Shown in pieces: positions 17,974 through 64,000 of a stretch of 64,000 nt of DNA; position 1 is the first letter of the stretch, and each line of letters begins with the position of its first letter. Source of the DNA: a virus; IMG/VR virus record IMGVR_UViG_3300034190_001539, positions 1 to 64,000 of that record. The stretch is one strand, 5' to 3'. Position numbers and translations under genes: made by a program. The notes under the pieces are model-generated. The model saw nothing but the letters and a program-made list of their open reading frames with translations, was not told the DNA's origin and did not search any database.

Positions 17974-20478
17974 TTACTCTGGAAACGCAGCGCCTGTTGG
18001 CAATACTGAGAAATCCAAAACAATGAACTCAGCCGTTCTAGTAGGTTGTATGAATATCTGTCCAACCAACTGATTTCTATCTACGACATCAGGTGTATTG
18101 TTGGAATCATCCATTACAACTTTGAATGCACTCAAACCACTATTGGATTGAACGGATTCTAAGAACGGATTTACTATATTTAGGAATCTAGCTCTTGTAG
18201 ATGAATCGTTTTGTTCAAATACTAAGAATCTACTTGAGGAAGCAATAAACTTCTTCAATCTGATTAATAGTCTACGAACATTGATTCTATCAAGTGCAGA
18301 TGGTTTAGCCTGTAGTGTCTTTTGTCCAAATACCACAACTCCTTGACCAGGAAATGAAGCAATCGGATTAACTCTACCCTCATAAAGTGTATCCCTATCA
18401 GTATGAGTAAGCTTCTTCTTAGTCATCCTAACATTAGATAATCCACCTCTGTTCAATCCAGCAGGAGCAAACCATTCGTGAGCTACACTATCTGTGAAAG
18501 CAATCACACCAGGTATTACTACTGATGGTGGCACCCAAACTTGACCATTTCCAGCAGGGTTTTCAATCTTAACCCACGGATAATAAGTAGCCACATAGTT
18601 TGTATCTAATCCGACAACATTATCAACTGCTGTTGCAACATTATCATCTATATCAGCACTATCTAATACATAAAAAGCATCAGCTCTTTCTTCAGCTTTA
18701 TCAATCGCATGATTTGAAACAACTGAGTGATGTTTATGGATAATACCTGGAGTTACGAGCATATTAATATCGTAATCATCAGGATTAGCTATAGCATTTA
18801 TCGCTCTTTTGTAAGCAATTGAACCACTAGCGGTTGTAGTTGAACAATCAAATCCACTTGTATTTGTAGATGAGATTGAAGTACCAGTGTTCTTTGAAGC
18901 CGCTGGATTTACACCATCAAAACCATGTTGCATTGGAACAGAAAACTTTAACTGCTCAGCGGATTGAGAAATTGTCAAAGTTTGTGTACTAATAGCAAAA
19001 TTAGTTTTATTTGAGTATTCAAAGGATGTAGTATCTCCATATCCAAACATATTTTCCAAAGAGAAATCAGCATTACCACCAGCCGTTTCATTATGTGAAA
19101 TTGGTGCTAAATAAGCATAGTTTGTTGATGTTTCACTGTTAGGATAATCAGGATGTAACTTAATACCGTAAGGAAGATACTCTTTGTATGTTCCAACGTT
19201 ACTTTTGTCACCATCGCTGGTTTGTGTTAGTGCGAATGACGCTGTTGGTACAACGTTTGCAGAAACAATAGGATCTAATACAGCAGCATGCCCCATAGGT
19301 TGTAAATTAGGATTACTTCTAAATAAATCCTCTTTATAATCACCTATACGAATAAGTTGAGATAAATTCGGATAGTCACCATATGTAGTAATCTCACCAT
19401 TGTTATTTACAGTCTGAAACATATCACCAATTACCTTTACTATGTAATTAGATGAATCAGGATCCATATTAAGTCCACTATAGCTTTCTAATGGTGCTGG
19501 ATTACCTGTTCGGTATACAGCGAGACCAAATTGTGCATAAGTTGGGCTTGAATTAGAACCTTGCGGTCTTTTGACATCTCTTATTACAACATAGTAATGA
19601 TTAGTTTCATTTCCATCTGCTCTCGTATAAACTCTAAACAGATTTGTACCACTACCACCAATTAATTGAGAATTAATGAAAGGTGTTCTAGCAGAGGAAG
19701 CATCTTTATTACCAGTATTGGTTATAATATAATTACCATTTGATGTATCGACTGTTTCTGTTCCTGTGGCAAAGTTGAATGTTGCATCTTCAGTAAACAT
19801 TTTGGCCTTATCTGCACTAGAAGCTATCATACCACCAGCAAGTGAAGCACTTACAGAGCTTTCAAAAAACTTATACATATATCCTGGAGCTTCTGTAGCA
19901 CCTATTGATTGTGCTTTAGGATCTGTAGGAACTTGCCTTAAAATATAATTACCAGATACAGCATCATTTTCTCCTGTAGCAGAACCTTTTGTTATTATCG
20001 AAAGATTCGTTAAACTAGCAGTCGCATTAGCACCAGCTAATTCTAATGTAAAATTACTAGCGCTTGTAGCACCTTTAATAGAACCACTTAAAGCGCCTGT
20101 TCCATTACTATTATTAATTGCTGGTAAAAATGAAGCTACAACTAATTTTCCATCCTCACCATAGTTGGCTGATGAACCACTAATAAGCAGATTAAATCCA
20201 CCTACTGAATATCCACCTATATATCCAACTTTTACTATTGTTACAGTTCCTGCGGAACGTAAATATTCTTTTACTGTATATGGTGTGTAATAATCCGAGT
20301 TATAAGATCCGAATATCTGTTCAAACTGCTCAAAACTTCTTATTATCGTGGGTACAAAGGAAGGACCTCTTACTGTTGGTCCGACAATTGCTGCCCCGAT
20401 TTCCGAAATTCCTTGCGGTAGAAAAGATAAATCTTTTTCTCGAGTAAATACACCAGGACTGACTATTCTCTCTGCCAT
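17974..20478 (-). CDS. gp18: Tail sheath protein (T4 gp18-like)
   Basis: SPGVFTRE.DLS N-terminus; YYPWV, WFAPAGLNRG, RDTLY...VNPI, GQKTLQ, LDRINVRRL, IQPTRTAEFI. Confidence 0.95.
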   Translation of the reverse strand: MAERIVSPGVFTREKDLSFLPQGISEIGAAIVGPTVRGPSFVPTIIRSFEQFEQIFGSYNSDYYTPYTVKEYLRSAGTVTIVKVGYIGGYSVGGFNLLISGSSANYGEDGKLVVASFLPAINNSNGTGALSGSIKGATSASNFTLELAGANATASLTNLSIITKGSATGENDAVSGNYILRQVPTDPKAQSIGATEAPGYMYKFFESSVSASLAGGMIASSADKAKMFTEDATFNFATGTETVDTSNGNYIITNTGNKDASSARTPFINSQLIGGSGTNLFRVYTRADGNETNHYYVVIRDVKRPQGSNSSPTYAQFGLAVYRTGNPAPLESYSGLNMDPDSSNYIVKVIGDMFQTVNNNGEITTYGDYPNLSQLIRIGDYKEDLFRSNPNLQPMGHAAVLDPIVSANVVPTASFALTQTSDGDKSNVGTYKEYLPYGIKLHPDYPNSETSTNYAYLAPISHNETAGGNADFSLENMFGYGDTTSFEYSNKTNFAISTQTLTISQSAEQLKFSVPMQHGFDGVNPAASKNTGTSISSTNTSGFDCSTTTASGSIAYKRAINAIANPDDYDINMLVTPGIIHKHHSVVSNHAIDKAEERADAFYVLDSADIDDNVATAVDNVVGLDTNYVATYYPWVKIENPAGNGQVWVPPSVVIPGVIAFTDSVAHEWFAPAGLNRGGLSNVRMTKKKLTHTDRDTLYEGRVNPIASFPGQGVVVFGQKTLQAKPSALDRINVRRLLIRLKKFIASSSRFLVFEQNDSSTRARFLNIVNPFLESVQSNSGLSAFKVVMDDSNNTPDVVDRNQLVGQIFIQPTRTAEFIVLDFSVLPTGAAFPE

Positions 20479-20524
20479 GTGTTTTCTCCTTAAAGGGTTT
20501 TAAAAATCATTGAAATTTATTATA

Positions 20525-20532
20525 TATAAATA
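20525..20532 (-). promoter_or_regulatory. Putative late promoter core upstream of sheath
   Basis: Sense TATTTATA about 47 nt upstream of the ATG. Confidence 0.65.
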
Positions 20533-20572
20533 TAATCAAAAAATCTCAAAATACAACCGATTGCTATTTTTT

Positions 20573-20878: not shown

Positions 20879-20939
20879 TACTTACTCCTATTAGTTCAAT
20901 AATAATATATATCAGATAAATATCTGAAAGTTAATTTTT

Positions 20940-23378
20940 TTAACCATTTGGCCATCTAATTTTGTCTTTATCAGCCCAATTATCAATATTTGTTATACCG
21001 CCTCTGAATTTATTAGGATGTCTTTCATCTTGCATTGATGGACTGTGAAATCCAAATTGTCCATCCCAATCATTACCACGTTTTTCATTAGCTTCAAAGG
21101 AAAAGTCAGCTGCTAACTCTTCAGGTGCAAACTTCATTCCGTTTTCTTCTAAATACTTTCTGTGGATTCTGCAGATAGCATCATCATCCGATGGATATAA
21201 ATCTATAACATCATCTTTTTGTACAAAGTCTAACATCTTTTTACTTATCAGACTAAATCCAGCATTCCCAACATTATTTTCTTCATACCACCACGGTGCG
21301 CCTATGTAATCATAGTTTAAGAACTCATCTTTCCAAGCCTTTGGATTTAAGATAAAGCCATCAAATTCTATATGTAAAATGTATTTAGTTTTGATGTAAG
21401 AATTCATTTTTTTCCACATAAAGTGTATTACATCTAAGTTTGATTGACAATGAGGAATTTTAATTATATCATCATTGTCTCTGTCCATAGAAGTAAAGAA
21501 TTTAACATCTCCAAATTGAGCATATATAGTAGAAATATTAACTGCTCTCAAAGCCCTTTCGTAGTCAATACAATCCACTATCACCAATGTCACATCTTTT
21601 AAATCTAGCTTTTCTTTTTCATACCACCATTCTTTTCCGTGATTATACTCTCTTCTCGGTGGATATTTTTTTACTATCTGTTCCATAGTTTTGTCTTTCA
21701 TTAGAAGTGATTCGTGTCTTGGAATCTCATCGTTATATTCACCTTGCCAAGTAGATTCTACTCCAAAATGTGTGCAACCACCAACGTAACAGGCTATAAA
21801 ATTATCTCTGTTTTGTTTACCACCACTTTCTTCGTGCCACCATTGTACCCACCAATCTAAACCTGCAAACCAAGCACAGTAGTCATTATTTGTTTTTGTC
21901 TCTGAATACAAATCTACATCTATCGGTAGCATTTTAAATAATTCATCACGTCTCATCATCATATTACCAGCTCTGGCAGTTTGTCTATATAACCAATTAC
22001 CATCTTTGTGTGTAATATCGTGTTCAGGTGAATTATAAAATGTTGCTATTGTTACATTATCTTCTTCATCTAATTTATCACATAATATAGATAATGGTTC
22101 GTGATATTGATTATCGTGGTCTGAAAACATAATGTATTGGCAATTATCAAAGAACCCACTTTCCCAAATTTTATTTGTTCCACCTCTTTGTCCTAAATTT
22201 TCATCAATAGAAATTATAGTTATATTATCATATTCTTTACAAACCTCAATTGCTTGTTCTTTCAAATCAGAATTATCAGATTGTTCTAAAACACAAATTT
22301 TATCATTAGGTTCTATAACTTCCATTAAAGAATCTAAAGTTCTTTTTAAATAATAAGGTTTATTGTAACTCAATAATTGTATAGCAACTCGTGTGGCATT
22401 TTCTCCTTTACCCCAACTATGAAATCCACCCGAAAAGAATTCGTGTTGAGTAAATTCTCCTTTTATCTTTCTATGTCCTTCTTTTTTTAAATCTACCCCA
22501 TCCCAATATTTTGTTTTGAAACCAAGTATTTCTTTTACTATATCAGCTGATGTTGCTTCTTCTATCTCTACATCTTTATCTATGATTCCATAGTATTCAT
22601 CTAATTGTGATTGTGAAGTAACTACAGGATTTTGCCAACCATCAAATGTAAAATTCATCATTTCAATTAAACCCAAAGGTAGTTTATTTTGTTGTTTATA
22701 AGAAATTGAATTAAATGAACTTTGTCTGTTTTTTTCTTCGACTCTCCATTGATCCATTTCATAATCATACTTATTTGAAGTAATTAAGGGAAATCTTCCT
22801 ATATCATATCTAGCGTATAAGTTTGGTATTGGTTCATCTATATATTCTTCAACACTATTTTGATTAATATCCAATACACCTTTGTTATAAGTTTCTGTAA
22901 ATTTTATGATTTCGTCTGTGTTTTGATTAGAAAAGTGTCCTCTATCGAATTCATCTGTAGCGATGAATAGTTTACATCCTGTATGTTTTTGGAATTTTTT
23001 ACAATACTCTAACCACTCACTAGCCTCTTCCCAACTCAATGTATCTAAAACTATCTGTACATTTTTACCTCTCAAATCATAATCATATCTTTTTAAAAAA
23101 TTGAATTCACCATTTTCAACTGAATATACTTTGAAAACCCAATCAGCGTGCCATTGAACCCAATTGGATTGCCATGAACCCATACCTACAAGTTGAAATG
23201 AATCCCAATAACACAATTGTCCTTTTTGGTTTTTTAAATATTGTTCTACATATAAAGTATAATATTTATCGTTAGTGTGTATACACCTAACTATAGGATC
23301 TTTAATTATTTTGATGTGATCTTTTCTTTCTTGCATAAATTCTCCCTCCCAAGGAGCTCTAATCGGCCTTCTTCTCAT
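20940..23378 (-). CDS. Multidomain glycosyltransferase: degenerate Aah/TibC-like N-region, GT2 domain, DUF5672-like domain
   Basis: YDLRGKNV...FQKHTGCKLFI resembles the N-region of the 1331-aa protein; LLSYNKPYYLKRTLDSL, ENLG and DHD (GT-A fold); C-terminal DGFILNPKAWKDEFLNYDYIGAPW...FGFH. Confidence 0.75.
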   Translation of the reverse strand: MRRRPIRAPWEGEFMQERKDHIKIIKDPIVRCIHTNDKYYTLYVEQYLKNQKGQLCYWDSFQLVGMGSWQSNWVQWHADWVFKVYSVENGEFNFLKRYDYDLRGKNVQIVLDTLSWEEASEWLEYCKKFQKHTGCKLFIATDEFDRGHFSNQNTDEIIKFTETYNKGVLDINQNSVEEYIDEPIPNLYARYDIGRFPLITSNKYDYEMDQWRVEEKNRQSSFNSISYKQQNKLPLGLIEMMNFTFDGWQNPVVTSQSQLDEYYGIIDKDVEIEEATSADIVKEILGFKTKYWDGVDLKKEGHRKIKGEFTQHEFFSGGFHSWGKGENATRVAIQLLSYNKPYYLKRTLDSLMEVIEPNDKICVLEQSDNSDLKEQAIEVCKEYDNITIISIDENLGQRGGTNKIWESGFFDNCQYIMFSDHDNQYHEPLSILCDKLDEEDNVTIATFYNSPEHDITHKDGNWLYRQTARAGNMMMRRDELFKMLPIDVDLYSETKTNNDYCAWFAGLDWWVQWWHEESGGKQNRDNFIACYVGGCTHFGVESTWQGEYNDEIPRHESLLMKDKTMEQIVKKYPPRREYNHGKEWWYEKEKLDLKDVTLVIVDCIDYERALRAVNISTIYAQFGDVKFFTSMDRDNDDIIKIPHCQSNLDVIHFMWKKMNSYIKTKYILHIEFDGFILNPKAWKDEFLNYDYIGAPWWYEENNVGNAGFSLISKKMLDFVQKDDVIDLYPSDDDAICRIHRKYLEENGMKFAPEELAADFSFEANEKRGNDWDGQFGFHSPSMQDERHPNKFRGGITNIDNWADKDKIRWPNG

Positions 23379-24972
23379 TTTTACTCCAATATAAATTATC
23401 CTCTACTATTAAATAATCAACAGTACCTTTTTTTAAATGTTCAAATGGTTGATTCAAATCAAATATAATTGGTTCTCCATGACCATTAAAAGATGTATTT
23501 AAAAGAACTGGTATTTTAGATATTTTATCATATTCGTTTAAGATGCTATGAAAAAACTTATTTCTTTCTTTAAAAACTAATTGTGGTCTCAGAGTATTAT
23601 CTACTCTATGAACTACAGCAGGTATTTTATCAATCCACTCATCTTTTACTGTATAACACATTGTCATAAACTCAGCAGTCATTTTTGATTTTGTATTTTT
23701 ACAAATATCATCTATCTTTTCTCCTAAAATAATCGGAGCGAATGGCATTATTTCGTGTCTTTCTAATCTGTCATTTAAAGTTTCGTGCATTTCTTTATCT
23801 GTGGCTCTAACTAATATACTTCTAGCACCCAATGCTCTAGGCCCGTATTCCATTTTTCCCTGAAAACAACCGATGATATTTCCATCATCTAATAATTGAG
23901 CAACTTTTTTAGGATTAAATTTTTCTTTTTGAAAATCCCATTCCTTTTCTTCTTTTTTTATTTCATCCTTTGTATAATGGTTTCCTAAAAACATATTTTC
24001 AAATCTTTTATTTTTCCACTCACCCAATTCTACTGATTTCATTATAGCTGCAGCTAGCGCTAATCCAGAATCACTCATAGCTGGGTAGACATATACTTCA
24101 TCAACCCAATCTAATTCATTTATTTTTTGATTTAATTTTACATTGGCAAAAATACCACCAGCAACTGCTACCCTTTTGTATTCAGGATAAAATTTATGTA
24201 AATCTTCTAAGTATTCTAAAAAAACATCCTCTGTTAATTTTTGTACATTGAAAGCCCATTCAGCTTTTATTTCAAAATTACTATTCCAATCATCAATGCT
24301 ATCTGTAATGTTTCCCATAAGAGTTTCTAATTTTTGCCAATTACCAACAGGACCGAAGCTTAAATCATTTGTATAATGTAATGTCTGTTTTAGTTTATTA
24401 TAAATTTTTTCATTATATTTTCCGTGTCCGGCCATACCCATAAGCTTTCCCTCATCTTTAAGAGAATGCCACACCTTTCCCTCTGGCGCAAACCAAGGTG
24501 TACAACGACCAAAAAACTGACCAATAGATGCTGATTTATCTTTTAATTGTTTATGTACTAAATGTAATTTATCATCATATCCTAAATAAACTCTACCAAC
24601 AGTTTTAAAACCACTTCCGTCGTGAGTAACAACTAAAGTCTTTTCTTTAAAGCCTGAAGTATAGTAAGCACCAGCAGCATGACATAAGTGATGTGGATAT
24701 GTAACAATCTTTCTTCTAATTTCATCTGATTTGTATCTATCAAAGTCTGGCTCTGCTACCTCTGCTATACATATATAATCAGAATCCTCTGTCTTATATC
24801 CAAAATCATTTTCTATTGTATCTAGAGCAAACCAAGGATAAACTCCACTAAGAGCAAAAGATTTAATCTTACGAATTCTTTCTTCTTCTATAACTATCTT
24901 TATATCACCATCCTCTATATAAGCCACACAAGAATCATGAGCATGCCCAATCAATCCAAATATCTTACTCAT
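23359..24972 (-). CDS. O-carbamoyltransferase (CmcH/NodU/TobZ family), complete
   Basis: HDS, EEER, HHLCHA, DGSG, EGKLMGMA, GGIFANVKLN, PAMSDSG, EYGPRALGARS, PFAP, LNTSFNGHGEPI. Confidence 0.95.
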   Translation of the reverse strand: MSKIFGLIGHAHDSCVAYIEDGDIKIVIEEERIRKIKSFALSGVYPWFALDTIENDFGYKTEDSDYICIAEVAEPDFDRYKSDEIRRKIVTYPHHLCHAAGAYYTSGFKEKTLVVTHDGSGFKTVGRVYLGYDDKLHLVHKQLKDKSASIGQFFGRCTPWFAPEGKVWHSLKDEGKLMGMAGHGKYNEKIYNKLKQTLHYTNDLSFGPVGNWQKLETLMGNITDSIDDWNSNFEIKAEWAFNVQKLTEDVFLEYLEDLHKFYPEYKRVAVAGGIFANVKLNQKINELDWVDEVYVYPAMSDSGLALAAAIMKSVELGEWKNKRFENMFLGNHYTKDEIKKEEKEWDFQKEKFNPKKVAQLLDDGNIIGCFQGKMEYGPRALGARSILVRATDKEMHETLNDRLERHEIMPFAPIILGEKIDDICKNTKSKMTAEFMTMCYTVKDEWIDKIPAVVHRVDNTLRPQLVFKERNKFFHSILNEYDKISKIPVLLNTSFNGHGEPIIFDLNQPFEHLKKGTVDYLIVEDNLYWSKNEKKAD

Positions 24973-26900
24973 AAAGCGTATTCCTTATTTATATCAACTG
25001 CAGTTTTGTATATTTCCATATCATCCCTATTTAGATTTTCTATAAATCCTCTATCTATTTTTTCATATTCTTCTTTATATAAATCCCACTTTGAGTTTTG
25101 TATAGTATTTTTAAAATCAGAATCTCCTGATTCTACATCGAAATATGGGTAATTAGAATCTTTTATTTTGACACCAAACATCTTTTCAAATTTTTTCAAA
25201 CTATCATTGTAAGATTCAGTAATTCCTATGAAATCTATTTTTTCAAAGTTTCCTTCAATATATTTACCATAAATATTTTTTGAAAATTCTAATTCACAAT
25301 ATTCATATAAACTTAAATCTTCTTCTATTATTTTATTTTGTATTGGATTGTGATGTGATGGTGAGCTTTTTAAAAAATAATATTCTGATATTAATCTGTC
25401 AATTGGATTTCTAAACCAAGTAACTAATTTATGAGAAGATAAGTCTGAATACTTACCCAATCTAAAATGTCCGTGTATACATTGAAAGTGTTTAGTATCA
25501 ACTGAGGGAGTTAATTCGTATTTATTCCAAGTTGGATGATCACCATAATCTTCATATAAAAGAAAATCTTCTTTTTTCGTAAAATATTTTTCATCATACA
25601 AAACTCTATCTCTTACATTTACCTTTGCATCTCTAGCTCCAAAAATATCATATAGTACATTTCTAAACAAATTACCACCAGTTCTAGGTATATGAGATGA
25701 TATTATCCTAAGCTTTGATTCTTCTTTTTTAGTATGAATTATTTCACCATCTTTTGGCATAGTCCATAAATCTTTATATTTATAATAATCCCACAATCTA
25801 TCATCATTGAATGGATATATCTCATCATTTAAAGCCATATCAATAGTTTCTTTAGATAGCGTAGGACATCTTTCAGTTCCCAAAGGGCTCATAGTTAAAT
25901 GTGATGTATCGGGATATAACCAACCTAAATGATTTATAGTGTCATTATATCCTGTTGTAGAGTTTTCACCCGCGCCTCCATTTGGTGATTCATTAGGAAA
26001 TAATGGTTGAAAATGTTTAACTCTTTCAAAATGTTTTTCTCCACAAGGTATAACTTCCATACGATTAGTTACTGTAAGTAAAGGTAATTGAACATAATCT
26101 GGATGAAATCCAGCAAATATAGTTTGTACACTACCTGCTTCTTTTAGTCTTTGTTTTTCTGGCAGTATTCCAATTGTCTTTAAACCTAATCCCTTTGCTA
26201 TATGATATATACTACTTTGTGCGCCTATGTATATAGGAAATTCAGCAACAAAGTCAATTAATTTATTTCTAGAAACATTTAACACATGCGTATCAGCTGA
26301 TTTAACGAGATAGTCATCGGATAAACCTAATTGTACACAACGATAAGTTTTTGATAAATGTCCAACCACTTCTTCTAATAAATCATTATCTCCAAATCTA
26401 CCACCAGTTTTACTATTTAGTGTAAACAATATAGTGTTCTTTCTCTTTTTAATATTTGGTGAAGCAAATAGTTTTGGTGTATAATCCTCTGTTCTTAATC
26501 CCCAAGTATTAGTACATCTCTGAATTGTTGTTCCAAAAGTTCCCATAGAACCCCATTTGTAATCGAAATTATGAGTACCATCTACATATGGATTGTGTTG
26601 AAATACATCAATAAACCACTTTGGTATAAATACTTTACATCCCTTATAATATATTTTTAATAACTCAGGCAGTCTAGTGTATGGAATAATATCACCAAAA
26701 GAAGTACCACGATCAGATCTGTAGTCTACTGCTATTTCGGGATGTCCTATATAAAAATTATAGTCATCAGGAACATGCGGCGGAAAACCTTCAAAATCTA
26801 ATATCTCTTCTTGAAAGTTTTTAACTTTCCAAAAGTCTTTTGTCTGATTAATATAATGAAGAATATCCCCATCGGTTTGTGGCTTTTTAGCTATATTCAT
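24969..26900 (-). CDS. GT9-like glycosyltransferase fused to a sulfotransferase
   Basis: FGDI...HNPYVD and YIGAQSSIYHIAKGLG (GT-B/GT9-like); C-terminal HIPRTGG (5'-PSB), HGHF and RNPIDRLISEY (3'-PB) sulfotransferase motifs. Confidence 0.8.
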   Translation of the reverse strand: MNIAKKPQTDGDILHYINQTKDFWKVKNFQEEILDFEGFPPHVPDDYNFYIGHPEIAVDYRSDRGTSFGDIIPYTRLPELLKIYYKGCKVFIPKWFIDVFQHNPYVDGTHNFDYKWGSMGTFGTTIQRCTNTWGLRTEDYTPKLFASPNIKKRKNTILFTLNSKTGGRFGDNDLLEEVVGHLSKTYRCVQLGLSDDYLVKSADTHVLNVSRNKLIDFVAEFPIYIGAQSSIYHIAKGLGLKTIGILPEKQRLKEAGSVQTIFAGFHPDYVQLPLLTVTNRMEVIPCGEKHFERVKHFQPLFPNESPNGGAGENSTTGYNDTINHLGWLYPDTSHLTMSPLGTERCPTLSKETIDMALNDEIYPFNDDRLWDYYKYKDLWTMPKDGEIIHTKKEESKLRIISSHIPRTGGNLFRNVLYDIFGARDAKVNVRDRVLYDEKYFTKKEDFLLYEDYGDHPTWNKYELTPSVDTKHFQCIHGHFRLGKYSDLSSHKLVTWFRNPIDRLISEYYFLKSSPSHHNPIQNKIIEEDLSLYEYCELEFSKNIYGKYIEGNFEKIDFIGITESYNDSLKKFEKMFGVKIKDSNYPYFDVESGDSDFKNTIQNSKWDLYKEEYEKIDRGFIENLNRDDMEIYKTAVDINKEYAL

Positions 26901-28176
26901 TAAAAGCTCCTAATATTTCTTTTTCATTATATTTTTTTCCCATAAAAGCACTTTCCTCTCTATTAGACAAGTTGAAAATTCCTTTTTTACTATGAAAGTT
27001 AAAGTAACCATAAAAAGCACATCCTAAACTTATACCACTATCATCAGCTGCTGGAACAAAAAAGTGATTATCAAAAATATCTAAATCTATTATTTTTTGA
27101 TTTGCCACAGAATTTAAGAAACTGCCACCTGCAGCACAAAAGTTTTTGACATCTGAAATCATTGAACACTTTTTAGCTAAAAATTCAACAACTCTTTCAA
27201 ATTGATTTTGTACAAACCAAGCATGATCTGCTTTAGATTGAAAATCATTTTCATATATAGTATCACTCATATAAGATGGTATTGGTGTATTTATATACAT
27301 TTCATCTAATTCTTCTTGTTCTTCATATGGGAGGTGTTCATGAGCCCTTATCAAATATTCACCAACCTTAGGATCTTTATCAATGTATACCATTGGTTCT
27401 TTATATTTTTGTTTAACTTTATCTTCATCTCCAAAGGGAGCTAATCCCATAAGTTTTCCAGCATCATCTCCAGTCAAACCTATGTGAATACAATTGTCAT
27501 AATACCACTCCCCAAGTGATTTTCCTAATCTATATCTAGTGCTAAAACCAGAACCATCTTTGTGTTTTCCTACTGTATTAAAATATGAGTAAGCTGCTTT
27601 GTATCGAGAGTATATTCTTTTGAATACACCTTTTTTAACTTCATAAATACTAGTAGCTTCAACACACTCACCAAGTCTTGTTTTTTGAGTATGTGCTATT
27701 TTGTTTTCTACAAAATCATCTACTGTTTGTTTGTAATTCATTTCACCAGCATTGTCAGCTACTAAAATAATAGATTCATCAAAACCACTTGAGTAATGAG
27801 TTGAGTATGCGTGTGCTAAATGATGTGTACAATAATTTAATCTATCATTTGGCAAATTATATCCATTTTTTTTCAACTTCTGAACTAAAAATCCGTCTAC
27901 ACTTATTTGTTGGTCTGGTGTTAAACCAATGCCATTCCAAACAATTCTATCTAAATCCATTTTCTGTATATTAGCATAGTCTAAACAATAGTCCATAGCT
28001 TTCCAAGGAAATTCTATTAATGAATAATCCCAATTATTTTCTTCTGGCGATGGATAGCCATTGTCATTTTTAATTCTAGTAATTCTTTCTAAATTTATAG
28101 AAACGAATACCTTGCCTTCTCTCAGTAAAGTAGCGCCAGATTGATGTCCTATGTTTACACCTAAAACCCAAGTCAT
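26887..28176 (-). CDS. Carbamoyltransferase N-terminal (Kae1-like) domain only
   Basis: HHLAHA, GKLMGLAPFG, AGGSFLNSVAN and PAADDSG present; ends at the interdomain linker with no GPRALG/LNTSFN domain. Confidence 0.85.
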   Translation of the reverse strand: MTWVLGVNIGHQSGATLLREGKVFVSINLERITRIKNDNGYPSPEENNWDYSLIEFPWKAMDYCLDYANIQKMDLDRIVWNGIGLTPDQQISVDGFLVQKLKKNGYNLPNDRLNYCTHHLAHAYSTHYSSGFDESIILVADNAGEMNYKQTVDDFVENKIAHTQKTRLGECVEATSIYEVKKGVFKRIYSRYKAAYSYFNTVGKHKDGSGFSTRYRLGKSLGEWYYDNCIHIGLTGDDAGKLMGLAPFGDEDKVKQKYKEPMVYIDKDPKVGEYLIRAHEHLPYEEQEELDEMYINTPIPSYMSDTIYENDFQSKADHAWFVQNQFERVVEFLAKKCSMISDVKNFCAAGGSFLNSVANQKIIDLDIFDNHFFVPAADDSGISLGCAFYGYFNFHSKKGIFNLSNREESAFMGKKYNEKEILGAFNEYS

Positions 28177-28179
28177 TTA

Positions 28180-31100
28180 TTAGTCTCTGATTGGTGTTAT
28201 TAAATAATTTTCTACAACTAAATAATCAATATCATTTTTAAGAAAACATCTTATAGCATCAGCAGGTGTCTCTACTATAGGTTCACCAGCCTCATTAAAA
28301 GATGTATTCAATATTACTGGAATGCCTGATAGCTTTCCGAACTCTTTTATAACATCATAATATCTTTGATTGGTTTCTCTTCTTACAGTTTGTAATCTAG
28401 CAGTTCCATCTACGTGTGTTATGGATGGCAACTTTTTTTTAAACTCCTCTTTTACTTGAGCTATTAACAACATATATGGGCTTTCTGTAGTATGTGTAAA
28501 GTATTTATCAGCATCTTCTACAGTACAAGCAGGAGCAAATGGTCTATACCACTCTCTATGTTTTACCCTATTGTTAATTATATCTTGCATATCGGGATGT
28601 GTTGGATCTCCTAATATACTACGATGTCCTAATGCTCTTGGCCCCATTTCACTTCCACCTTGAAAGAAACCAACAACTTTTCCTTCGTGTACAAATGAGG
28701 CAATTTTTTTAGCTAAAGCATCCTCATCCTCAATTTTTTCGTAAGTTATTTTATCAACATTATTTATATCACTCATTATTTCCTCCTCAGAGTAATCTTT
28801 ACCCATAAAGACAGTCTCTTCTTTATTACTTAAATTTACCTTACCTTTGTCAGGATGAAAATTGTAATATCCATAAAAAGCAGTTCCAATTGATATACCA
28901 CCATCGTCTGCTGCTGGTACATAAAAATGGTCATCAAATAAATCTAAATCGACTATTTTTTGATTAGCAATTGAATTAAGGAAGCAACCACCAGCGCCTG
29001 TCAAGTATTTAACATCGGAATTCATTGAAGCCTTTTTAGCTAAAAATAATATTAAATCTTCAAATTTATTTTGAATCATCCAAGCCCAATCAGCTTTTGA
29101 TTGAAAATCTTCTGATGCTATATTAGAACTAAAATATTCTGGTCTTGGAGAATCTATATACATAAGAGTTTCTGCAGTTTGTTCTTCTCTCGGAACTGCG
29201 TGATGTACTCTTATAAAATAATCTCCTGATTTTGGGTCTGGGTCTATATAAACCATTTTCTCATTAAATCTTTTGTTAGCTACCTCAGGCCTACCATATG
29301 AAGCTAAACCCATAAGTTTTCCAGCATCATATAGTCCATCCATACCTATGTAGTTACAACCTAAAGCATAAAGTTCTCCAACTGACTGTCCTAATGTCGG
29401 CCATAATTCACCAGCTTCTGGAAAAGGTTTATAAGCTCCGTATATTTTAGTGAATACACCCTTTTTAATTTCATAGATACTACTGGCCTCTACACATTTC
29501 TCTATCGGATATTTTTTCATATGTGCTATTTTGTTGGTGGTGAACTTATCAATCACATCTCTGAAATTGGTTTCTCCGCCAGCATCTACTACAATCGAAA
29601 CAGACTCTTCAAACCCACTCGAATAGTGTGCTGAATAAGCATGAGCTAAATGATGAGTACAATAGTTTAATCTATCTTCAGTAAAATGCCAACCATTGTC
29701 TTTTAGTCTATTAGCCCAAAGTCCATTTGGATCAATTGCTAAGTCAGGAGGTAAACCTATACCATTCCAAACAATTCTTTCCAAATCTTTTTTAGTTATT
29801 CCAGCATAATCTAAACAATATTCCATAGCTTTCCAAGGAAAATCATCATTAGCCTCATCGTGCTTTATTCTAGAAATTCTTTCTGAATTTATTGAGACAA
29901 ATACTTTTCCATTTTTTACTAGTGTAGCGCCAGAGTCGTGTCCAATATTTACCCCCATAACCCATCTATCTTCACCAACTTTAATAGGTTCTATGTTATT
30001 TTTGTTTTTATTAAAAACAATAGTTCCATCATATGAATCACTGCTACCTTTTTTATATTTAGGTACAAAACCACATTTTGTTAATTTTTTTAATAAAGGC
30101 TGTAATCTATCAGTATTATGATGAAACTCTAATAAGATTTGATTTACATTATTTTTTAAATAATCTTCGCTAGCATTTAAGAAGATTTCATATTCGGCAC
30201 CCTCTACATCACATTTAATAAGATCTATATAATCTATTTTGTTCTGTTTGATAAAATCATCAAAAGACAAACATTCAACATTAGCAGTTGTTATATCTCT
30301 TTCAAATGTATATGGATTGTTATAATTAACAGGATTAACCCATTTTTCTATTTCAGGCCAATCGTTGATATAAAAAGAACCATTTGATGTAGAATGTTGT
30401 GGGTATTTTAACCATCTATTTTCAGTAATTTCTCCTAATGCACTATTGGAAATAATTACATTATCTGATTCTTTAAATGTTTTGTTAAGTCCACTCCACA
30501 AATCCGGATTTGGTTCTAGTGAATAACAAACTTTAACATTTTGTTTTGAAACCCATCTTGTGAAAACTCCTATATGTGATCCTATATCCATCACCACAGA
30601 ATCTTCGTTAAGATTGAATAAACCTTTATACTCATCTGCATAAAATATTTCTTTATGGTTTGCCCAATTTACATCAAATTCATTAGTTATATATTTAAAT
30701 TCATCTTTATTTTTAACAGAGTTGTCATTTAATTTTATGCTAAATGTTTTAATTTTAATTTTTTCTTTTGTGTAAACTACGACATCTACTTTATCTAAAT
30801 AATAATTTTCCCAAGGAGTAACATAATTAAATGGAAGCCAATAAGATGTATTCTCATCAAAAGCTATTTTTGAAGTGTATAAGGTTAAATCAGAATATGG
30901 GTCTACTACTCTGACAATAAATTCCGATTTCCTATCATTATAAAACCAAAGTTTACCTACTTCTGTTGCATCTACTGTTAGATTTGTAACATTTTTTATC
31001 TTATTACCTAATTTTATTTTTTTATTTAACATAACTTTTATTCCCTCAATCACCATTTCAGGTGTTATTTTTTTAGTACACTCAAATTCTCTATCTGTTC

Positions 31101-32175
31101 CTTTTTGTTTTGGACAAAAATTCCAATCGCCTGGAGAAAAACCATCTGTATGCCAACAACCTGTACAAACATTGTCATCATTTTCTAAGTTGATGTGTTT
31201 GGTTTTATCAGCAAAATTATACCAAGAATAATTATGTCCGTGAATTAAAACCACTGGAATATCTACAGCCCAAGCCAACCAACTTAATCCAGAACTTACA
31301 CCTATAAATAGTTCAGCATACTTTAAATCACCAATTCTATCTTCAATTGGTAAATCACCTGATTTATCAATAATACCAGTCGGATTTATATTGCCCATAT
31401 AACCGCTATCTTCTCTAGATAAATATACAACTTTATACCCAATCTTCAAAAAATAATCAACTACTTTTTGCCAACCACCATCATTATTCCAATATTTAAG
31501 TTGTGCGCTAGCGTGGGGTCCTATACAAATGTACTTACCCTCAATTTTATTTTTAGGTTCAAATTTTTCTAAATTAAGCTTTGGTTTAATTTCTTTAGTT
31601 GGCAATCCTAATATATCCGAAGCTGCTTGTTGCATAGAAATATTAGATAAGTCTACTTTATTATAAGAATCATTAAATTCATAAAATGGTTCTGTATTTT
31701 TATAACCAAAAACACCAACCTCATATGTAGCATAAAAAGATTTTGTTGGCCATTCTGATCCTTCTTTCCAAAAAGTAAAATCGTAAGTTTCTTTAAATAT
31801 TTCTGGAAAAATTGTTCCACAGAATATTTTACAATTATGTTTTTTTCTAAACTCTTCTACATAAGAAATCCAGGCAAAGTTGTCGCCTAACATATTTGAA
31901 GATATTCTTACAAAAACTTCTTTGTCTTTTAAATCTAATTGATGTTCATAGATTAGTTTACCATCTTCATATATTACTATCTTCCAATCAGTATACCATT
32001 TTCTAGAATACATAGCTGAAACACCAATTGATACTGTAGCATCGTATACTAATGTATCAGCATCCCAAAACTCTATGGTATATTCGGAATTATTTTTACG
32101 CTTTGAATTGATTATTACAAATGGACCTGAATCGAAGTTGAATTCTATTTTCAAATCTCTTATAGTCTTTATCAA
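28180..32175 (-). CDS. Fusion of Aah/TibC-like protein O-heptosyltransferase, FkbM-type methyltransferase and complete carbamoyltransferase
   Basis: SNMLGDNFAW, ASAQLKYWNN, FIGVSSGLSWLAWA and 4-Cys finger CTGCW...CP...EC; DIGSHIG and IDLIKCDVEGAE; HHLAHA...GPRALGHRS...HREWYRPFAP...LNTSFN. Start is uncertain (see findings). Confidence 0.88.
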   Translation of the reverse strand: MIKTIRDLKIEFNFDSGPFVIINSKRKNNSEYTIEFWDADTLVYDATVSIGVSAMYSRKWYTDWKIVIYEDGKLIYEHQLDLKDKEVFVRISSNMLGDNFAWISYVEEFRKKHNCKIFCGTIFPEIFKETYDFTFWKEGSEWPTKSFYATYEVGVFGYKNTEPFYEFNDSYNKVDLSNISMQQAASDILGLPTKEIKPKLNLEKFEPKNKIEGKYICIGPHASAQLKYWNNDGGWQKVVDYFLKIGYKVVYLSREDSGYMGNINPTGIIDKSGDLPIEDRIGDLKYAELFIGVSSGLSWLAWAVDIPVVLIHGHNYSWYNFADKTKHINLENDDNVCTGCWHTDGFSPGDWNFCPKQKGTDREFECTKKITPEMVIEGIKVMLNKKIKLGNKIKNVTNLTVDATEVGKLWFYNDRKSEFIVRVVDPYSDLTLYTSKIAFDENTSYWLPFNYVTPWENYYLDKVDVVVYTKEKIKIKTFSIKLNDNSVKNKDEFKYITNEFDVNWANHKEIFYADEYKGLFNLNEDSVVMDIGSHIGVFTRWVSKQNVKVCYSLEPNPDLWSGLNKTFKESDNVIISNSALGEITENRWLKYPQHSTSNGSFYINDWPEIEKWVNPVNYNNPYTFERDITTANVECLSFDDFIKQNKIDYIDLIKCDVEGAEYEIFLNASEDYLKNNVNQILLEFHHNTDRLQPLLKKLTKCGFVPKYKKGSSDSYDGTIVFNKNKNNIEPIKVGEDRWVMGVNIGHDSGATLVKNGKVFVSINSERISRIKHDEANDDFPWKAMEYCLDYAGITKKDLERIVWNGIGLPPDLAIDPNGLWANRLKDNGWHFTEDRLNYCTHHLAHAYSAHYSSGFEESVSIVVDAGGETNFRDVIDKFTTNKIAHMKKYPIEKCVEASSIYEIKKGVFTKIYGAYKPFPEAGELWPTLGQSVGELYALGCNYIGMDGLYDAGKLMGLASYGRPEVANKRFNEKMVYIDPDPKSGDYFIRVHHAVPREEQTAETLMYIDSPRPEYFSSNIASEDFQSKADWAWMIQNKFEDLILFLAKKASMNSDVKYLTGAGGCFLNSIANQKIVDLDLFDDHFYVPAADDGGISIGTAFYGYYNFHPDKGKVNLSNKEETVFMGKDYSEEEIMSDINNVDKITYEKIEDEDALAKKIASFVHEGKVVGFFQGGSEMGPRALGHRSILGDPTHPDMQDIINNRVKHREWYRPFAPACTVEDADKYFTHTTESPYMLLIAQVKEEFKKKLPSITHVDGTARLQTVRRETNQRYYDVIKEFGKLSGIPVILNTSFNEAGEPIVETPADAIRCFLKNDIDYLVVENYLITPIRD

Positions 32176-32254: not shown

Positions 32255-32500
32255 TTAGTACGAACCACTAACATCATTTCCTATCCAAAATAGATTACAT
32301 TCTGGACAAAATGAACCTGTTATAAAGTCTCCTATCTCTTCATCATCGCTATCCATATCGTGAGTTGAAGATATTTTTAGTAATGAACCTGAAGTCGCTC
32401 CTTTTGTACTAATGATACTATAATCTTCCGTTCTGCATATGTATATTGATTCGGATAATTGTGTTGTTCCATCACAACTTCCACTGTGTATTAGACTCAT
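32255..32500 (-). CDS. Small Cys-containing protein next to the fibre genes
   Basis: 81 aa, four Cys including CPEC; four [S/T]GS motifs. Confidence 0.6.
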   Translation of the reverse strand: MSLIHSGSCDGTTQLSESIYICRTEDYSIISTKGATSGSLLKISSTHDMDSDDEEIGDFITGSFCPECNLFWIGNDVSGSY

Positions 32501-41719: not shown

Positions 41720-41965
41720 TTATCCTCCAAAGACTATAGCCATCGCCGTAGCGTGGTCAATTACAGATGAACCTTGTTCAAAGATTCTTCCCTCAGCATT
41801 AATGTCAGCACCAGCTTTTAGTGTTCCAAATGAACCTGTAGATGTAGAAGAACCAGACACCAAAGCAAAAGATCCAGTAGATGTAGAATCGCCTACAAAG
41901 CTACCTGAAATCGTAAATGAACCAGTCAGTTTTGGATTTAGTTGTTTACTTCGTTGTAAAGCCAT
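41720..41965 (-). CDS. Small fibre-associated protein rich in SGS/TGS
   Basis: 81 aa; shares the SGSxxSTGSFG motif with the fibre; ends in AMAIVFGG. Confidence 0.65.
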   Translation of the reverse strand: MALQRSKQLNPKLTGSFTISGSFVGDSTSTGSFALVSGSSTSTGSFGTLKAGADINAEGRIFEQGSSVIDHATAMAIVFGG

Positions 41966-45566: not shown

Positions 45567-47189
45567 TTAAACTTGATCGATGTCGGTTACAACAACTTTT
45601 CCGTAGAATTCTGGACGAACCATCTTCTTAGCGTAACGAGTCATCACACCTTTACGTGGAGTAAAGTTTTGAGGATCGTATACTAACGGAGTCATAATCA
45701 TCGGTACATATGGAGCATATACAGCACCAGTTTCTAAGAAATTGCTTCCTCTGAAACCAATAAGTATAGAATTATCCAACATGTAAGGATTCTTATAAAC
45801 AGTATATCTGTTATTGATTGAACCAACAGCTTCAACACCCATAGCATAAGTTTTACCTTCTGCATTACCAGTATTAGCAATATATCCGCTAACTGATTCT
45901 AAGATTGTAGCAGTTTCAGGTGAAACAACAACAAAATTAGCACCACCACGAAGTGTTTTCTGATGGATAGCATTAGAAACAGATTGTATCTTAATACCTA
46001 ATGTTTGAAACCATTGAGATTTCGTATAAGCATTAGAAGCACCACTTATTTGTGAAAAAGCAGGTGCACCTGTTCCAGAACCATCATACTCATAGCCAAC
46101 TTTAGCTGACCAGTATGCTGTCTTAGCAGAAGCATTAGCTTTTAACATATCAAGGATTTCTAAATCGATTTCCATTGCGATGTACTCACTTAACATAGCA
46201 GTTAGTTCAGCTTCGGCATCAACAGAATGATAAGCATTAAGATCCTGAGCAAGCTCTGGTGTCCATACAGCTTTTAACTTTCTTGTTTTAGCAACGATAG
46301 CTTCACTTCTTAACTGAATGTCTACTTCTGGAATCTCAAGATCATCAGCAGATGATGGTCCAGGTGTAGTAAACGAGCTCTGTTCAAAATCACCACGTTG
46401 AGTAGCAATTGGAGCTTCGTGATACTTAACACCAAAAAGTTGTCCATCAGCAGGTGTAATCTTAGCAAAGAAACTAGCAGTAGTTACATTATTGACATCA
46501 TCAACTACACTATAAGCTGGATAAACAGCTGTTACTCCAGAACCACTAAGTTCCCAAGCACGTATGCCATTGTAGTCAGGTCTAGTAAATAAACCAGCAC
46601 CAACTGATACTTTTAAAAGTGTTCCATCAGCAACAGAAGCACTTAAATCAGGCTCAAAGTCTACATCTTTCCATGTAGCAGAACCAGTAGTCATACCAAG
46701 TGGCGTAATACCTTCAGCTTTTTTATCGTTGATTGAATATCCAAATTTGCCTGCACCATACAAACCACCACTAGCATCGCCAGAACCTGAAGTATTACCA
46801 AATACATCAGAATTTTGATCGATTTGTGAGGAAGCAGAACCATATTTGAAGTCCAAAAAGAAAATCAGACCTGATGGTAGATTCATCGGTTGTACACTAA
46901 CAAACTCTTGTGCTGACAATTCACCAAAGATTCTACGAACCAATGGTAATGCAACACCAGACCACTCTTCTCTATCACCACCAGTACCTGTCGCTGAAGC
47001 TTCTTTAATAAGCTGCGTTGCCTGGTTTTCTAAAAGAACAGCCATTCCCTGTTTCTTAGTGGAGTCATCGATTTCATCTAACAATCCGGTCGGTTCCCAT
47101 TTGTCGACCAGTTTCCTAGTCTGTTTGAGAAGCTCTTTGTGTGGGTTGTGCCCAGTCATCAAAGAGTTTAGATTATCAAAGTTTGACAT
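45567..47189 (-). CDS. gp23: Major capsid protein (T4 gp23-like)
   Basis: KW...GLL, LLENQ, LPLVRR, VQPMNLPSGLIF, AKTRKLKAVWTPELAQDLNAYH, DAEAELT, YAPYVP, GVMTRY. Confidence 0.97.
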   Translation of the reverse strand: MSNFDNLNSLMTGHNPHKELLKQTRKLVDKWEPTGLLDEIDDSTKKQGMAVLLENQATQLIKEASATGTGGDREEWSGVALPLVRRIFGELSAQEFVSVQPMNLPSGLIFFLDFKYGSASSQIDQNSDVFGNTSGSGDASGGLYGAGKFGYSINDKKAEGITPLGMTTGSATWKDVDFEPDLSASVADGTLLKVSVGAGLFTRPDYNGIRAWELSGSGVTAVYPAYSVVDDVNNVTTASFFAKITPADGQLFGVKYHEAPIATQRGDFEQSSFTTPGPSSADDLEIPEVDIQLRSEAIVAKTRKLKAVWTPELAQDLNAYHSVDAEAELTAMLSEYIAMEIDLEILDMLKANASAKTAYWSAKVGYEYDGSGTGAPAFSQISGASNAYTKSQWFQTLGIKIQSVSNAIHQKTLRGGANFVVVSPETATILESVSGYIANTGNAEGKTYAMGVEAVGSINNRYTVYKNPYMLDNSILIGFRGSNFLETGAVYAPYVPMIMTPLVYDPQNFTPRKGVMTRYAKKMVRPEFYGKVVVTDIDQV

Positions 47190-55396: not shown

Positions 55397-55406
55397 AATT
55401 TGCCTC

Positions 55407-57370: not shown

Positions 57371-57371
57371 A

Positions 57372-57665: not shown

Positions 57666-57676
57666 TTTGTTTCTCC

Positions 57677-58512: not shown

Positions 58513-58514
58513 AA

Positions 58515-62303: not shown

Positions 62304-62320
62304 AATTTCCTATGTTCTTA

Positions 62321-62336
62321 TTCATATATAAATATA
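62321..62336 (-). promoter_or_regulatory. Putative late promoter (sense TATATTTATATATGAA)
   Basis: Exact 16-mer copy about 18 nt upstream of the 1262-aa ORF. Confidence 0.7.
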
Positions 62337-62347
62337 AAGTTTGTGAA

Positions 62348-64000
62348 TTATCCATTATCGGTGAGTGTAGTTTTTAAAGCGTTGAAGTCACCACTACCAC
62401 TTATCTGTGCTTTTAGAGTCTCTACCTGTGAAGATAATTCTTGTATAGCTTTTATCATCGGTGATAGGAATTCATTATATCGTAAACTCAACTCAGGATT
62501 TGGAATAGCAGTAAAGTTTTCCATTTCCCAATCAGCAGTATCTCTTATATCTTTTTCACTTCCACTTACGCTTGCACTAACAAACATTCTATTTTCAACA
62601 TATCCTGCAAAGTTGTCTGTGTGGACAGAGGACTTAGCTAATGAGGAAGAAACTTCTTGTGCTATTAAACCATAATGTGGTCTACCTTCTGACAACCATT
62701 GATACTTTACAGGATTTAAATCATTTATAAAATCTAAACCTAAATCTGAACCACTTATCTGCGTTTTAAGATTTCTATCTGATGTCTGTATCGTTCCATT
62801 TGTAGCTCGAACATCATCCCATCTAAAACTAGAATTACCCAAATCATAAAGATTATCTGTTTGAGGTTGGCAATGACCAAAAACCTCTATTGCTCTAGTT
62901 CCTCTAGGTATTGTGATTTGTTTGTAAAAAGTATTATTGTTCATTGTTCCCAAATGAAAATCATCAGAATCTTCATCATAAACTATTTTTGCTCCGTATT
63001 GTGGAGCACTTACACTAAAAGTACCTGTTTCGTACCAAGTTATACCACTTCCATTGGTTTCAGCGCCGTCTTGAGCCCGAATGCTTATCCAATTTTCGTG
63101 GTTACTTGTTGTGTCACCTAATCTAAGAACTGTGCCAGCTGAGTTTTTAGTAGTTAAGTGGACATAACCAGGAGTATTAGCTGAAGAACCATCGCCGCCT
63201 ACTCCAGGTATTAATTCCACATTTCCACCAGCTGCTTGGCTTAAATAAGAAGCCCCACCTTGTATTCTTACTGAACCACCGGTTCCAATTGGTGCAGTCT
63301 GCCCATTAATTAGAGTAGACACTCCATTATCGGCACCAGAAGCTGAAAGGTGGGTTAATGTTAATTCCGTATCAGCGGCTCTGGGTCTTAGTTGGTCTCC
63401 TAAAAAAGCATTACCAGTTCCTGTCGCAGTAACAGTACTACCAACTATAGCGTTTGCAGCTAGCTGATTTTTACAACTAACAGAACCAGAGATTTGAAGT
63501 GGATTTGCATTGCTAGTGTCATAATAAAATATTTGATAAGCATCCTTTACATCATCGTAACCGATAGACAATTTATTAACACTACCACTAACCCATTTTA
63601 CATAACCATCACCAAATTGTTCATCCCACATCAAAGAACTTCTCATTCTTCCTTGTGGTGCCATTTTGAAAGATTGTGCTACTGTTACACCGTTAGCTAT
63701 AACATCTCCTGATAAGTAATTGGTAGGGTCATTAGTATCATCAGATAATTTAAAATTTTCTGTATATATTGGTATACCCTCTGGCAAACCTAAAACACTG
63801 CAAACTTTTGAACCCCAAAATGTGTAAGATTTAAGACCACCATTTGTAGTGGTTTCTGTATCAGTAAAAGTTATACTACCTGTATGTGGTTCTGTAAAGG
63901 AGGCTGAGATATAGTCTATACCCATAGTTCCTGCATTAGAGTTTGCATAAAATTTAGAAGCATGCATGCTGACAGCTTCTTCACTTTGAATATAAGGACT
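62348..64000 (-). CDS. Tail fibre with C-terminal peptidase S74 chaperone (5'-partial)
   Basis: YDLG...RW...TSDRNLKTQI...LNPVKY...HYGLIAQEV...LRYNEFLSPMIKAIQEL; frame stays open from ATG 63967 to the window edge (SPYIQSEEAVS). Confidence 0.85.
   Translation of the reverse strand, partial: SPYIQSEEAVSMHASKFYANSNAGTMGIDYISASFTEPHTGSITFTDTETTTNGGLKSYTFWGSKVCSVLGLPEGIPIYTENFKLSDDTNDPTNYLSGDVIANGVTVAQSFKMAPQGRMRSSLMWDEQFGDGYVKWVSGSVNKLSIGYDDVKDAYQIFYYDTSNANPLQISGSVSCKNQLAANAIVGSTVTATGTGNAFLGDQLRPRAADTELTLTHLSASGADNGVSTLINGQTAPIGTGGSVRIQGGASYLSQAAGGNVELIPGVGGDGSSANTPGYVHLTTKNSAGTVLRLGDTTSNHENWISIRAQDGAETNGSGITWYETGTFSVSAPQYGAKIVYDEDSDDFHLGTMNNNTFYKQITIPRGTRAIEVFGHCQPQTDNLYDLGNSSFRWDDVRATNGTIQTSDRNLKTQISGSDLGLDFINDLNPVKYQWLSEGRPHYGLIAQEVSSSLAKSSVHTDNFAGYVENRMFVSASVSGSEKDIRDTADWEMENFTAIPNPELSLRYNEFLSPMIKAIQELSSQVETLKAQISGSGDFNALKTTLTDNG

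Follow-up and report, generated by a model that had tools for sequence, protein, structure and literature searches.

Why does one short peptide recur across the outer proteins of a phage particle, and which enzyme, if any, reads it? The question is raised by the first 64 kb (64,000 nucleotides; "the window") of a 101,285-bp viral contig, the incomplete genome of IMG/VR record IMGVR_UViG_3300034190_001539, which we call G000. It belongs to a T4-type myovirus; all genes of the window lie on the minus strand, and its GC content is about 32%. A first-pass annotation of this DNA had noticed by eye that the tripeptide [ST][GA]S (Ser or Thr, then Gly or Ala, then Ser) recurs in the outer virion proteins, and had proposed that transferases encoded in the same window modify it over the whole particle. 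Here we report that the tripeptide is strongly over-represented in these proteins, that it is specific at each of its three positions, and that across related phages it comes and goes with two glycosyltransferase (GT) genes, neither of which is the transferase first suspected. We give about an even chance to [ST][GA]S being a putative virion O-glycosylation sequon, either the acceptor motif itself or the core of it.

In eight outer virion proteins encoded between positions 17974 and 63967, we count 44 occurrences of [ST][GA]S, compared to 9.9±3.1 in 5000 composition-preserving shuffles (4.4-fold); the pooled maximum in any shuffle is 21. The tail sheath (834 aa, 17974..20478; Pfam Phage_sheath_1 and 1C) has 8 sites where 2.6 are expected (P 0.003). 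The Gp23-type major capsid protein (MCP; 540 aa, 45567..47189; Pfam Gp23 with E 2e-74, and a fold match to T4 gp23) has 6 where 1.3 are expected, the gp13-like head-tail adaptor (388 aa, 44294..45460; PHROG 211, head-tail adaptor Ad2) has 4 where 0.7 are expected, and the gp15-like tail sheath stabiliser (513 aa, 42260..43801; Pfam T4-gp15_tss) has 6 where 1.1 are expected. A tail fibre of 598 aa (62348..64000, the gene continuing to 64144 past the window; PHROG tail fibre and tail spike families) has 9 sites for 2.2 expected. Two proteins of 81 aa, described from their translations, complete the significant cases: the one at 32255..32500, which adjoins the TibC-like gene discussed below, has 4 sites for 0.4 expected, and the one at 41720..41965 has 5 for 0.9 expected (P 0.0002), all five being [ST]GS and four of them [ST]GSF. 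The eighth protein, of 97 aa, is not significant by itself (2 sites, 0.7 expected, P 0.14). Every example quoted in the first-pass annotation is present in the translations, including the four and five copies in the 81-aa proteins. Shuffling within blocks of 20 residues gives the same outcome as global shuffling, thus local richness in Ser and Gly is not the cause of the excess, and composition alone, which had been named as the explanation to beat, fails.

Other proteins of the same particle and genome are poor in the motif. There are no sites in the T4-type portal (53591-55396), TerL (55407-57020), the prohead protease (50687-51289) or the polymerase, and just one in ThyX (4118-4816), so the rarity originally described for these five holds. 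The gp19-like tail tube (16589-17077) has none either. Downstream of the tail-tube gene, three large proteins without a Pfam match (1321, 1011 and 689 aa; 5753-15136, minus strand) have zero sites both here and in the relative G001, where about 9 are expected in total. If these were exposed baseplate or tail proteins, their lack of sites would be unexplained.

How specific is the signal? We compared G000 with G001, a 165-kb IMG/VR relative, and with the nearest GenBank phages by MCP identity, which are the uncultured megaphage LR756508 (55%), Flavobacterium phage immuto (50%), Microcystis phage Mel-JY01 (50%) and Rhodothermus phage RM378 (39%). An E. coli T4-like phage and cyanophage S-RIM12 serve as outgroups. 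When all tripeptides are ranked over the whole proteome (leaving out proteins longer than 1500 aa), SGS comes first by over-representation in G000, G001 and immuto; it is sixth in RM378, 144th in S-RIM12 and 2545th in the E. coli T4-like phage. SSG, GSS and SGT are not enriched, unlike SGS. The words SGS, SSG and GSS have the same composition, so comparing them is independent of any composition model. Their respective counts are 33, 18 and 11 in G000; 36, 15 and 16 in G001; 65, 26 and 19 in immuto; and 29, 10 and 9 in RM378, compared to 8, 13 and 16 in the E. coli T4-like phage, 30, 29 and 33 in S-RIM12, and 75, 59 and 68 in LR756508. Pooled over 67 IMG/VR capsid-gene loci, they are 545, 165 and 156.

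The three positions of the motif can be examined one at a time by choosing proteins on [ST]GS alone and then scoring other words in them. The Ala form [ST]AS is independently enriched 2.2-3.7-fold and [ST]SS 1.3-1.8-fold, while [ST][NDTV]S, [ST]GT, [NDQE]GS, [AG]GS and [VILF]GS stay at about one or below, except for two small RM378 counts above twofold. From the enriched words and the flat ones, the motif is therefore a hydroxyl residue, then a small residue, then Ser, with specificity at all three positions. The pattern as first written stands in part: the Ala form is truly enriched, but it is the weaker one, and the core is [ST]-G-S. Val, Ile or Leu are favoured before the motif, and Phe, Ile or Leu after it. 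The signal is at the amino-acid level, since the Ser codons at the sites (AGT, TCA, TCT) roughly follow background usage; a motif in the DNA is rejected, as both Ser codon families and several Gly and Ala codons are used. General O-glycosylation in Bacteroidota uses the sequon D-[ST]-[AILVMT] and is periplasmic, whereas virions assemble in the cytoplasm. That sequon is not matched here: Val, Ile and Leu predominate at position -1, and Asp is not enriched there.

The sites cluster in what appear, from domain boundaries and alignments, to be peripheral or inserted regions of the sheath, the MCP and the gp15-like protein. In the sheath, all 8 sites are at residues 100-551, ahead of the conserved sheath domains (559-823). 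The 6 sites of the gp15-like protein are at residues 332-450 without exception, behind the gp15 domain (55-181). In the MCP, all 6 are at residues 118-239, a region that is shorter in the capsid proteins of the E. coli T4-like phage and the cyanophage. Amongst 58 related capsid proteins, 244 of 254 sites map to query residues 118-251, with 4-5 sites per protein for about 1.4 expected. An AlphaFold model of the MCP (pLDDT 61 overall, mostly 70-85 over residues 150-260, and used only for secondary structure) places sites in coil, helix and strand ends, and the best-conserved one at a hairpin tip; hence the MCP sites do not have one common local structure. By BLAST, the enriched proteins have no domain in common, except for one pair of paralogues of 329 and 355 aa. 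The most frequent distance between sites is six residues (13, 26 and 14 pairs in G000, G001 and immuto). Beyond the window, a 4103-aa fibre (genome positions 64169-76480, minus strand) includes a (hydrophobic)-SGS-x3-TGSFG element five times, with the copies about 150-360 residues apart.

The enrichment extends to the relatives of this phage. Amongst the capsid-gene loci, all those with enough protein are enriched, by 1.4-4.9-fold; four short fragments (at most 1.4 sites expected) have none. The same orthologous groups are enriched alike in G000, G001, immuto and Mel-JY01, at 27-50% identity. The sheath orthologues have 9 sites for 2.9 expected (G001), 8 for 2.6 (immuto) and 7 for 2.0 (Mel-JY01), and those of the adaptor have 5 for 0.8, 4 for 0.6 and 3 for 0.3. 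Taking the four phages in the same order with G000 first, the 329-aa protein has 9, 8, 5 and 6 sites (expected 1.1, 1.0, 1.1 and 0.8), the 355-aa protein 6, 6, 4 and 7 (1.6, 1.4, 1.0 and 1.2), and a 379-aa protein 8, 7, 5 and 4 (1.1, 1.1, 0.8 and 0.6). Portal, TerL and tail tube have zero sites in all four, and the protease nearly so (one in immuto). RM378 is enriched too, more weakly. The E. coli T4-like phage and S-RIM12 are not, despite their many beta-rich virion proteins. Some site positions are kept between relatives and many are replaced while the density persists. Several positions are conserved in the capsid protein and in the 355-aa protein; in the 329-aa family, G000 has no site position in common with immuto or Mel-JY01.

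The megaphage LR756508 is the exception. It has the same syntenic structural module as the enriched phages and nests inside their clade on the MCP tree, on a branch that is weakly supported. Its sheath has 1 site for 1.0 expected, its MCP 1 for 0.7, its adaptor 0 for 0.2, and its orthologues of the 329-aa and 379-aa proteins 0 for 0.2 and 0 for 0.3. The gp15-like orthologue, only 305 aa long, has none. In the MCP, unrelated residues occupy the places where G000 has the motif, inside a region that otherwise aligns. The folds do not need the motif, since the LR756508 orthologues lack it in conserved capsid and sheath proteins. LR756511, on a branch outside the clade, is not enriched either (8 sites, 8.0 expected).

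Which genes follow the same distribution? G001 encodes three adjoining glycosyltransferases, GT4a (464 aa), GT4b (444 aa) and GT2 (215 aa), at 135339-139603. Immuto, Mel-JY01 and RM378 encode all three as well, and the trio is missing from the two outgroups. LR756508 keeps GT4a (E 1.5e-90), and in it GT4b and GT2 are not found even with profile hidden Markov models. There are 16 G001 genes common to immuto, Mel-JY01 and RM378, of which GT4b and GT2 are the only two absent from LR756508 and from both outgroups. When the screen is relaxed, three more genes fit: those for a fibre, a 102-aa protein and another GT2, of 581 aa. The presence and absence of GT4b and GT2 thus match those of the motif across phages, and LR756508 appears, judging from its gene content and its place in the tree, to have lost both the genes and the motif.

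Close homologues of GT4b number at least 8000, with 438 clusters at E ≤ 1e-30. The EX7E motif is kept in it: over 69 sequences, E295 never varies and E303 is conserved to at least 90%. The G001 protein, as modelled with AlphaFold (pLDDT 94), has a GT-B fold, its best fold matches are GT4 enzymes, and the nearest solved structure to both GT4b and GT4a, by sequence and by fold, is chlorovirus NY-2A B736L (PDB 3oy2). Some homologues are interrupted by inteins (P0246 and P0256), one with a LAGLIDADG endonuclease, and others are GT4b-GT9-GT2 or GT4b-GT9 fusions (P0349, P0376, P0340). In G001 the trio is followed by a sugar cluster different from that of the window; it includes a C-methyltransferase, an RmlD-like reductase, an amidotransferase, an acetyltransferase and a PIG-L deacetylase, and the NTP-transferase/kinase, SIS isomerase, split transketolase and aminotransferase of the next set belong to it as well. 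At 150003-158475 (L128:1003-9475), consecutive genes encode an NTP-transferase/kinase fusion, a SIS-domain sugar isomerase, a split transketolase, a shikimate-dehydrogenase-like protein, a PhyH dioxygenase, an aminotransferase and a methyltransferase; from these families, the set looks like a phage route to an uncommon sugar in nucleotide-activated form, perhaps a heptose. Sugar-synthesis and tailoring genes occupy at least 20 kb in these phages.

The transferase to which the motif was originally attributed lies inside the window, in the virion block, and its cassette sits between the sheath gene and the fibre genes. It is a 1331-aa fusion of a TibC-like O-heptosyltransferase, an FkbM methyltransferase and a carbamoyltransferase (28180..32175, minus strand; Pfam). 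The rest of its cassette, at 20940..28176 on the same strand, encodes a GT2+DUF5672 protein, a carbamoyltransferase, a sulfotransferase and a carbamoyltransferase-N protein (Pfam). The N-terminal domain of the fusion matches the TibC structure 4rap (phmmer E 1e-51), with residues 38-379 aligned to TibC 49-382 of 406. The four Cys of CxGCW and CP...FEC are all kept; we take them to be the iron-binding cysteines of TibC. Asp110 is the catalytic base of TibC, and Thr226, Lys230, Arg286 and Trp305 bind the sugar (PMC4358343); D110, K230, R286 and W305 are identical in the phage protein, and Thr226 is replaced by Ser. The domain is thus a genuine homologue of TibC/Aah (the BAHT family), as the first-pass annotation had recognised. 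Between this cassette and the 81-aa protein at 41720..41965 lies a giant Gly-X-Thr protein (33278-41392, minus strand; 2704 aa, 42% Gly and 25% Thr), in a region with a GC content of 43-51% compared to about 32% elsewhere. It has no overall enrichment in the motif (10 sites, 10.9 expected). It adjoins the transferases and may be the real substrate of the cassette.

The further proposal, that these transferases coat the whole particle at [ST][GA]S, does not agree with the relatives. G001, immuto and RM378 are enriched and have no homologue of any enzyme of the cassette, the TibC-like gene included; in G001 and immuto the enrichment falls on the same orthologues as in G000. For the GT2+DUF5672 protein in particular, immuto, RM378 and both outgroups have no homologue. 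Within the phages of GenBank, the TibC-like domain is found only in Mel-JY01, where its gene adjoins two motif-rich fibre-like proteins, and in three megaphages. Two of these, with genomes of 636-735 kb and homologues of 34-37% identity, are LR756504 (437133-478236) and LR756501 (560168-601142). The 41-kb regions around their TibC-like genes are not generally enriched (9 sites for 7.0 expected and 21 for 13.5). One 695-aa protein of LR756501, encoded about 4 kb upstream of its TibC-like gene, has 11 sites for 4.2 expected. Co-occurrence of the motif with Aah/TibC-like genes, which had been suggested as a check, thus does not hold, and the TibC-like fusion appears to be an accessory enzyme and not the conserved partner of the motif.

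We propose that a phage-encoded system would O-glycosylate the outward-facing virion proteins at [ST]-[GA]-S, which is often flanked on at least one side by a hydrophobic residue, in the cytoplasm of the host. The conserved machinery would be the soluble GT4b and the small GT2, which would read the motif, beside GT4a; variable cassettes would then tailor the glycan. In this phage, the tailoring would be done by the TibC-like heptosyltransferase-methyltransferase-carbamoyltransferase fusion, the sulfotransferase and the GT2-DUF5672 protein, or the cassette may instead serve the neighbouring fibres only. The idea that a shared motif marks a common enzyme target thus survives with a different enzyme: the motif is specific at three positions, dispensable for the folds, and matched in distribution by two glycosyltransferase genes, and the TibC-like enzyme of the window is not the one that it points to.

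Several observations weigh against this proposal. If a promiscuous enzyme worked in the cytoplasm, one might expect selection against the motif in non-virion proteins, and we see no such depletion: the 26 remaining proteins between 17974 and 63967 have 5 sites for 8.6 expected (P 0.13), and the non-structural genes of G001 have 15 for 16.1. (A depletion elsewhere in the proteome, 6 sites for 18.9, is an artefact of selection that the functionally defined set of 26 does not reproduce.) The match between genes and motif comes down to about two evolutionary events: a gain, and a loss in a megaphage that has changed much. GT4b, GT2 and GT4a are all missing from this incomplete 101-kb contig, and we infer that they lie in the part of the genome that it does not cover; five other IMG/VR fragments of the clade (84-106 kb, 42-56% complete) do not have GT4a, and being fragments they are uninformative. 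The modelled fold of GT4b does not reveal its acceptor. The GT4b and GT2 genes sit amongst replication genes, in the replication half of the genome, and the enzymes could glycosylate DNA or another acceptor; phage glycosyltransferases that modify DNA are documented (10.1101/2023.12.21.572611). Finally, the [ST]GS-x3-[ST]GSFG repeat, which is part of the fibre signal, could well be structural.

This last point leads to the main rival, in which the motif is an unmodified short turn or strand cap (hydrophobic-S-G-S-hydrophobic) favoured in the peripheral beta-rich domains and fibre repeats of this lineage, while the glycosyltransferases act on DNA or on host polysaccharide. We hold it to be unlikely, at about one chance in four, and still the most serious competitor. 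The hydrophobic flanks at many sites agree with it, as do the six-residue site pairs recurring in fibres, the several positions conserved in the capsid and 355-aa proteins, the hairpin tip at which the model puts the best-conserved capsid site, and the location of the glycosyltransferase genes. It is weakened by LR756508, which lacks the motif although its capsid protein has the same insertion region and its sheath is full-length, and by the varied local structure of the capsid sites, spread over coil, strand end, helix and hairpin alike. A structural element also sits poorly with outgroups that are rich in beta virion proteins and not enriched, with enriched proteins that have no common domain beyond one paralogue pair, and with sites whose positions change while their density stays. 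Some other modification of Ser (for instance phosphorylation, acylation or cross-linking), or non-covalent glycan binding, seems to us improbable. A hydroxyl-small-Ser specificity would suit many Ser-directed enzymes, and the window does encode sulfo-, carbamoyl- and methyltransferases; against this, the genes matching the distribution of the motif are glycosyltransferases, one fibre and one 102-aa protein, with no other modifying enzyme that fits, and the remaining transferases are not conserved across the enriched phages.

Modification of [ST][GA]S over the whole particle by the TibC/Aah-like enzyme of the window and its neighbours is less probable still. The homology is genuine, with catalytic residues kept; the gene is inside the virion block and adjoins motif-rich small proteins, as the Mel-JY01 gene adjoins motif-rich fibre-like ones; and some GT4b homologues carry GT9 and GT2 fusions. 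Yet three enriched phages do without the gene, the megaphage TibC regions stay near expectation, and what the family reportedly recognises is an arrangement in the structure rather than a linear motif (PMC5000012). An artefact of composition or low complexity can practically be dismissed: the enriched proteins are indeed richer in Ser, Thr and Gly, and Ser/Gly/Thr repeat proteins in Mel-JY01 inflate all tripeptide permutations, but global and 20-residue local shuffles reject it, and so do permuted words in the same proteins.

How does O-glycosylation at [ST][GA]S compare with known systems? For mycobacteriophages, soluble glycosyltransferases encoded by the phage are proposed to add sugars to capsid and tail proteins within the host, and the glycans are reported at the C-termini of capsid and tail-tube subunits (Freeman et al. 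2023, as described in PMC12619734). The likeness is in the phage-encoded glycosyltransferases, here the cassette of the window and the GT4a/GT4b/GT2 genes conserved in relatives. The phages differ, being here T4-like myoviruses whose cultured relatives infect Flavobacterium, Rhodothermus and Microcystis. The sites differ too: here the putative sites are a short internal tripeptide scattered over sheath, capsid insertion, adaptor, baseplate and fibres; the capsid sites, at residues 118-239 of 540, are not C-terminal, and the tail tube has none. Chloroviruses glycosylate their own capsid protein with virus-encoded enzymes (PMC5408694, PMC9614988). They are eukaryotic giant viruses, and although their B736L is the nearest solved relative of GT4a and GT4b, it is only about 13% identical and has no established acceptor. 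Chlorovirus capsid glycans are N-linked, at unusual sites.

TibC and Aah are cytoplasmic and put many heptoses, taken from ADP-heptose, on serines of beta-helical proteins; enzymes of this family form a dodecameric ring. They recognise a structural repeat rather than [ST][GA]S (PMC5000012). The 1331-aa protein starts with a homologue that keeps their catalytic base, sugar-binding residues (PMC4358343) and four Cys; unlike them it is fused to a methyltransferase and a carbamoyltransferase, and its gene is absent from relatives with the same enrichment. GtfA and GtfB glycosylate serine-rich repeat adhesins, with repeats of the SASASAST type. Like GT4a and GT4b they are an adjacent GT-B pair, with Ser-small-Ser acceptors; GT4b keeps the catalytic EX7E, unlike a non-catalytic partner of the GtfB type. 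We find no support for this analogy: GtfA and GtfB are not among the sequence matches or the top listed fold matches of the GT4 pair. In the literature, we found no paper on this motif or on virion glycosylation in this lineage or in T4-like phages, and no report of a linear sequon for any phage.

Two other genes of the window are kept in relatives. One encodes ribosomal protein bS21 (48386-48613, minus strand; Pfam Ribosomal_S21, E 2e-15), upstream of the MCP gene with a 352-aa gene between them, and is kept in G001 and LR756508. The other (58515-62303, minus strand) encodes a 1262-aa protein with AAA_33/zeta-toxin-like kinase and cytidylyltransferase-like domains.

Virion glycosylation itself is already documented for mycobacteriophages and giant algal viruses. 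The present analysis adds that LR756508 apparently lost motif and genes together, that a phyletic screen picks out GT4b and GT2, and that the TibC cassette appears to be accessory. We judge it slightly short of an even chance that an abundant aquatic T4-like clade coats its whole outer surface, from sheath, capsid and neck to baseplate and fibres, with O-glycans at [ST]-[GA]-S, read by the conserved soluble GT4/GT2 pair, with strain-variable cassettes (for heptosyl, methyl, carbamoyl and sulfo groups here, and with another nucleotide-sugar pathway in G001) setting the type of glycan. If so, a tag of three residues would predict glycosylation sites in thousands of uncultured phage genomes, it would explain why these phages carry at least 20 kb of sugar genes, and it would bear on how the particles resist proteases or grazers, or on their adsorption.

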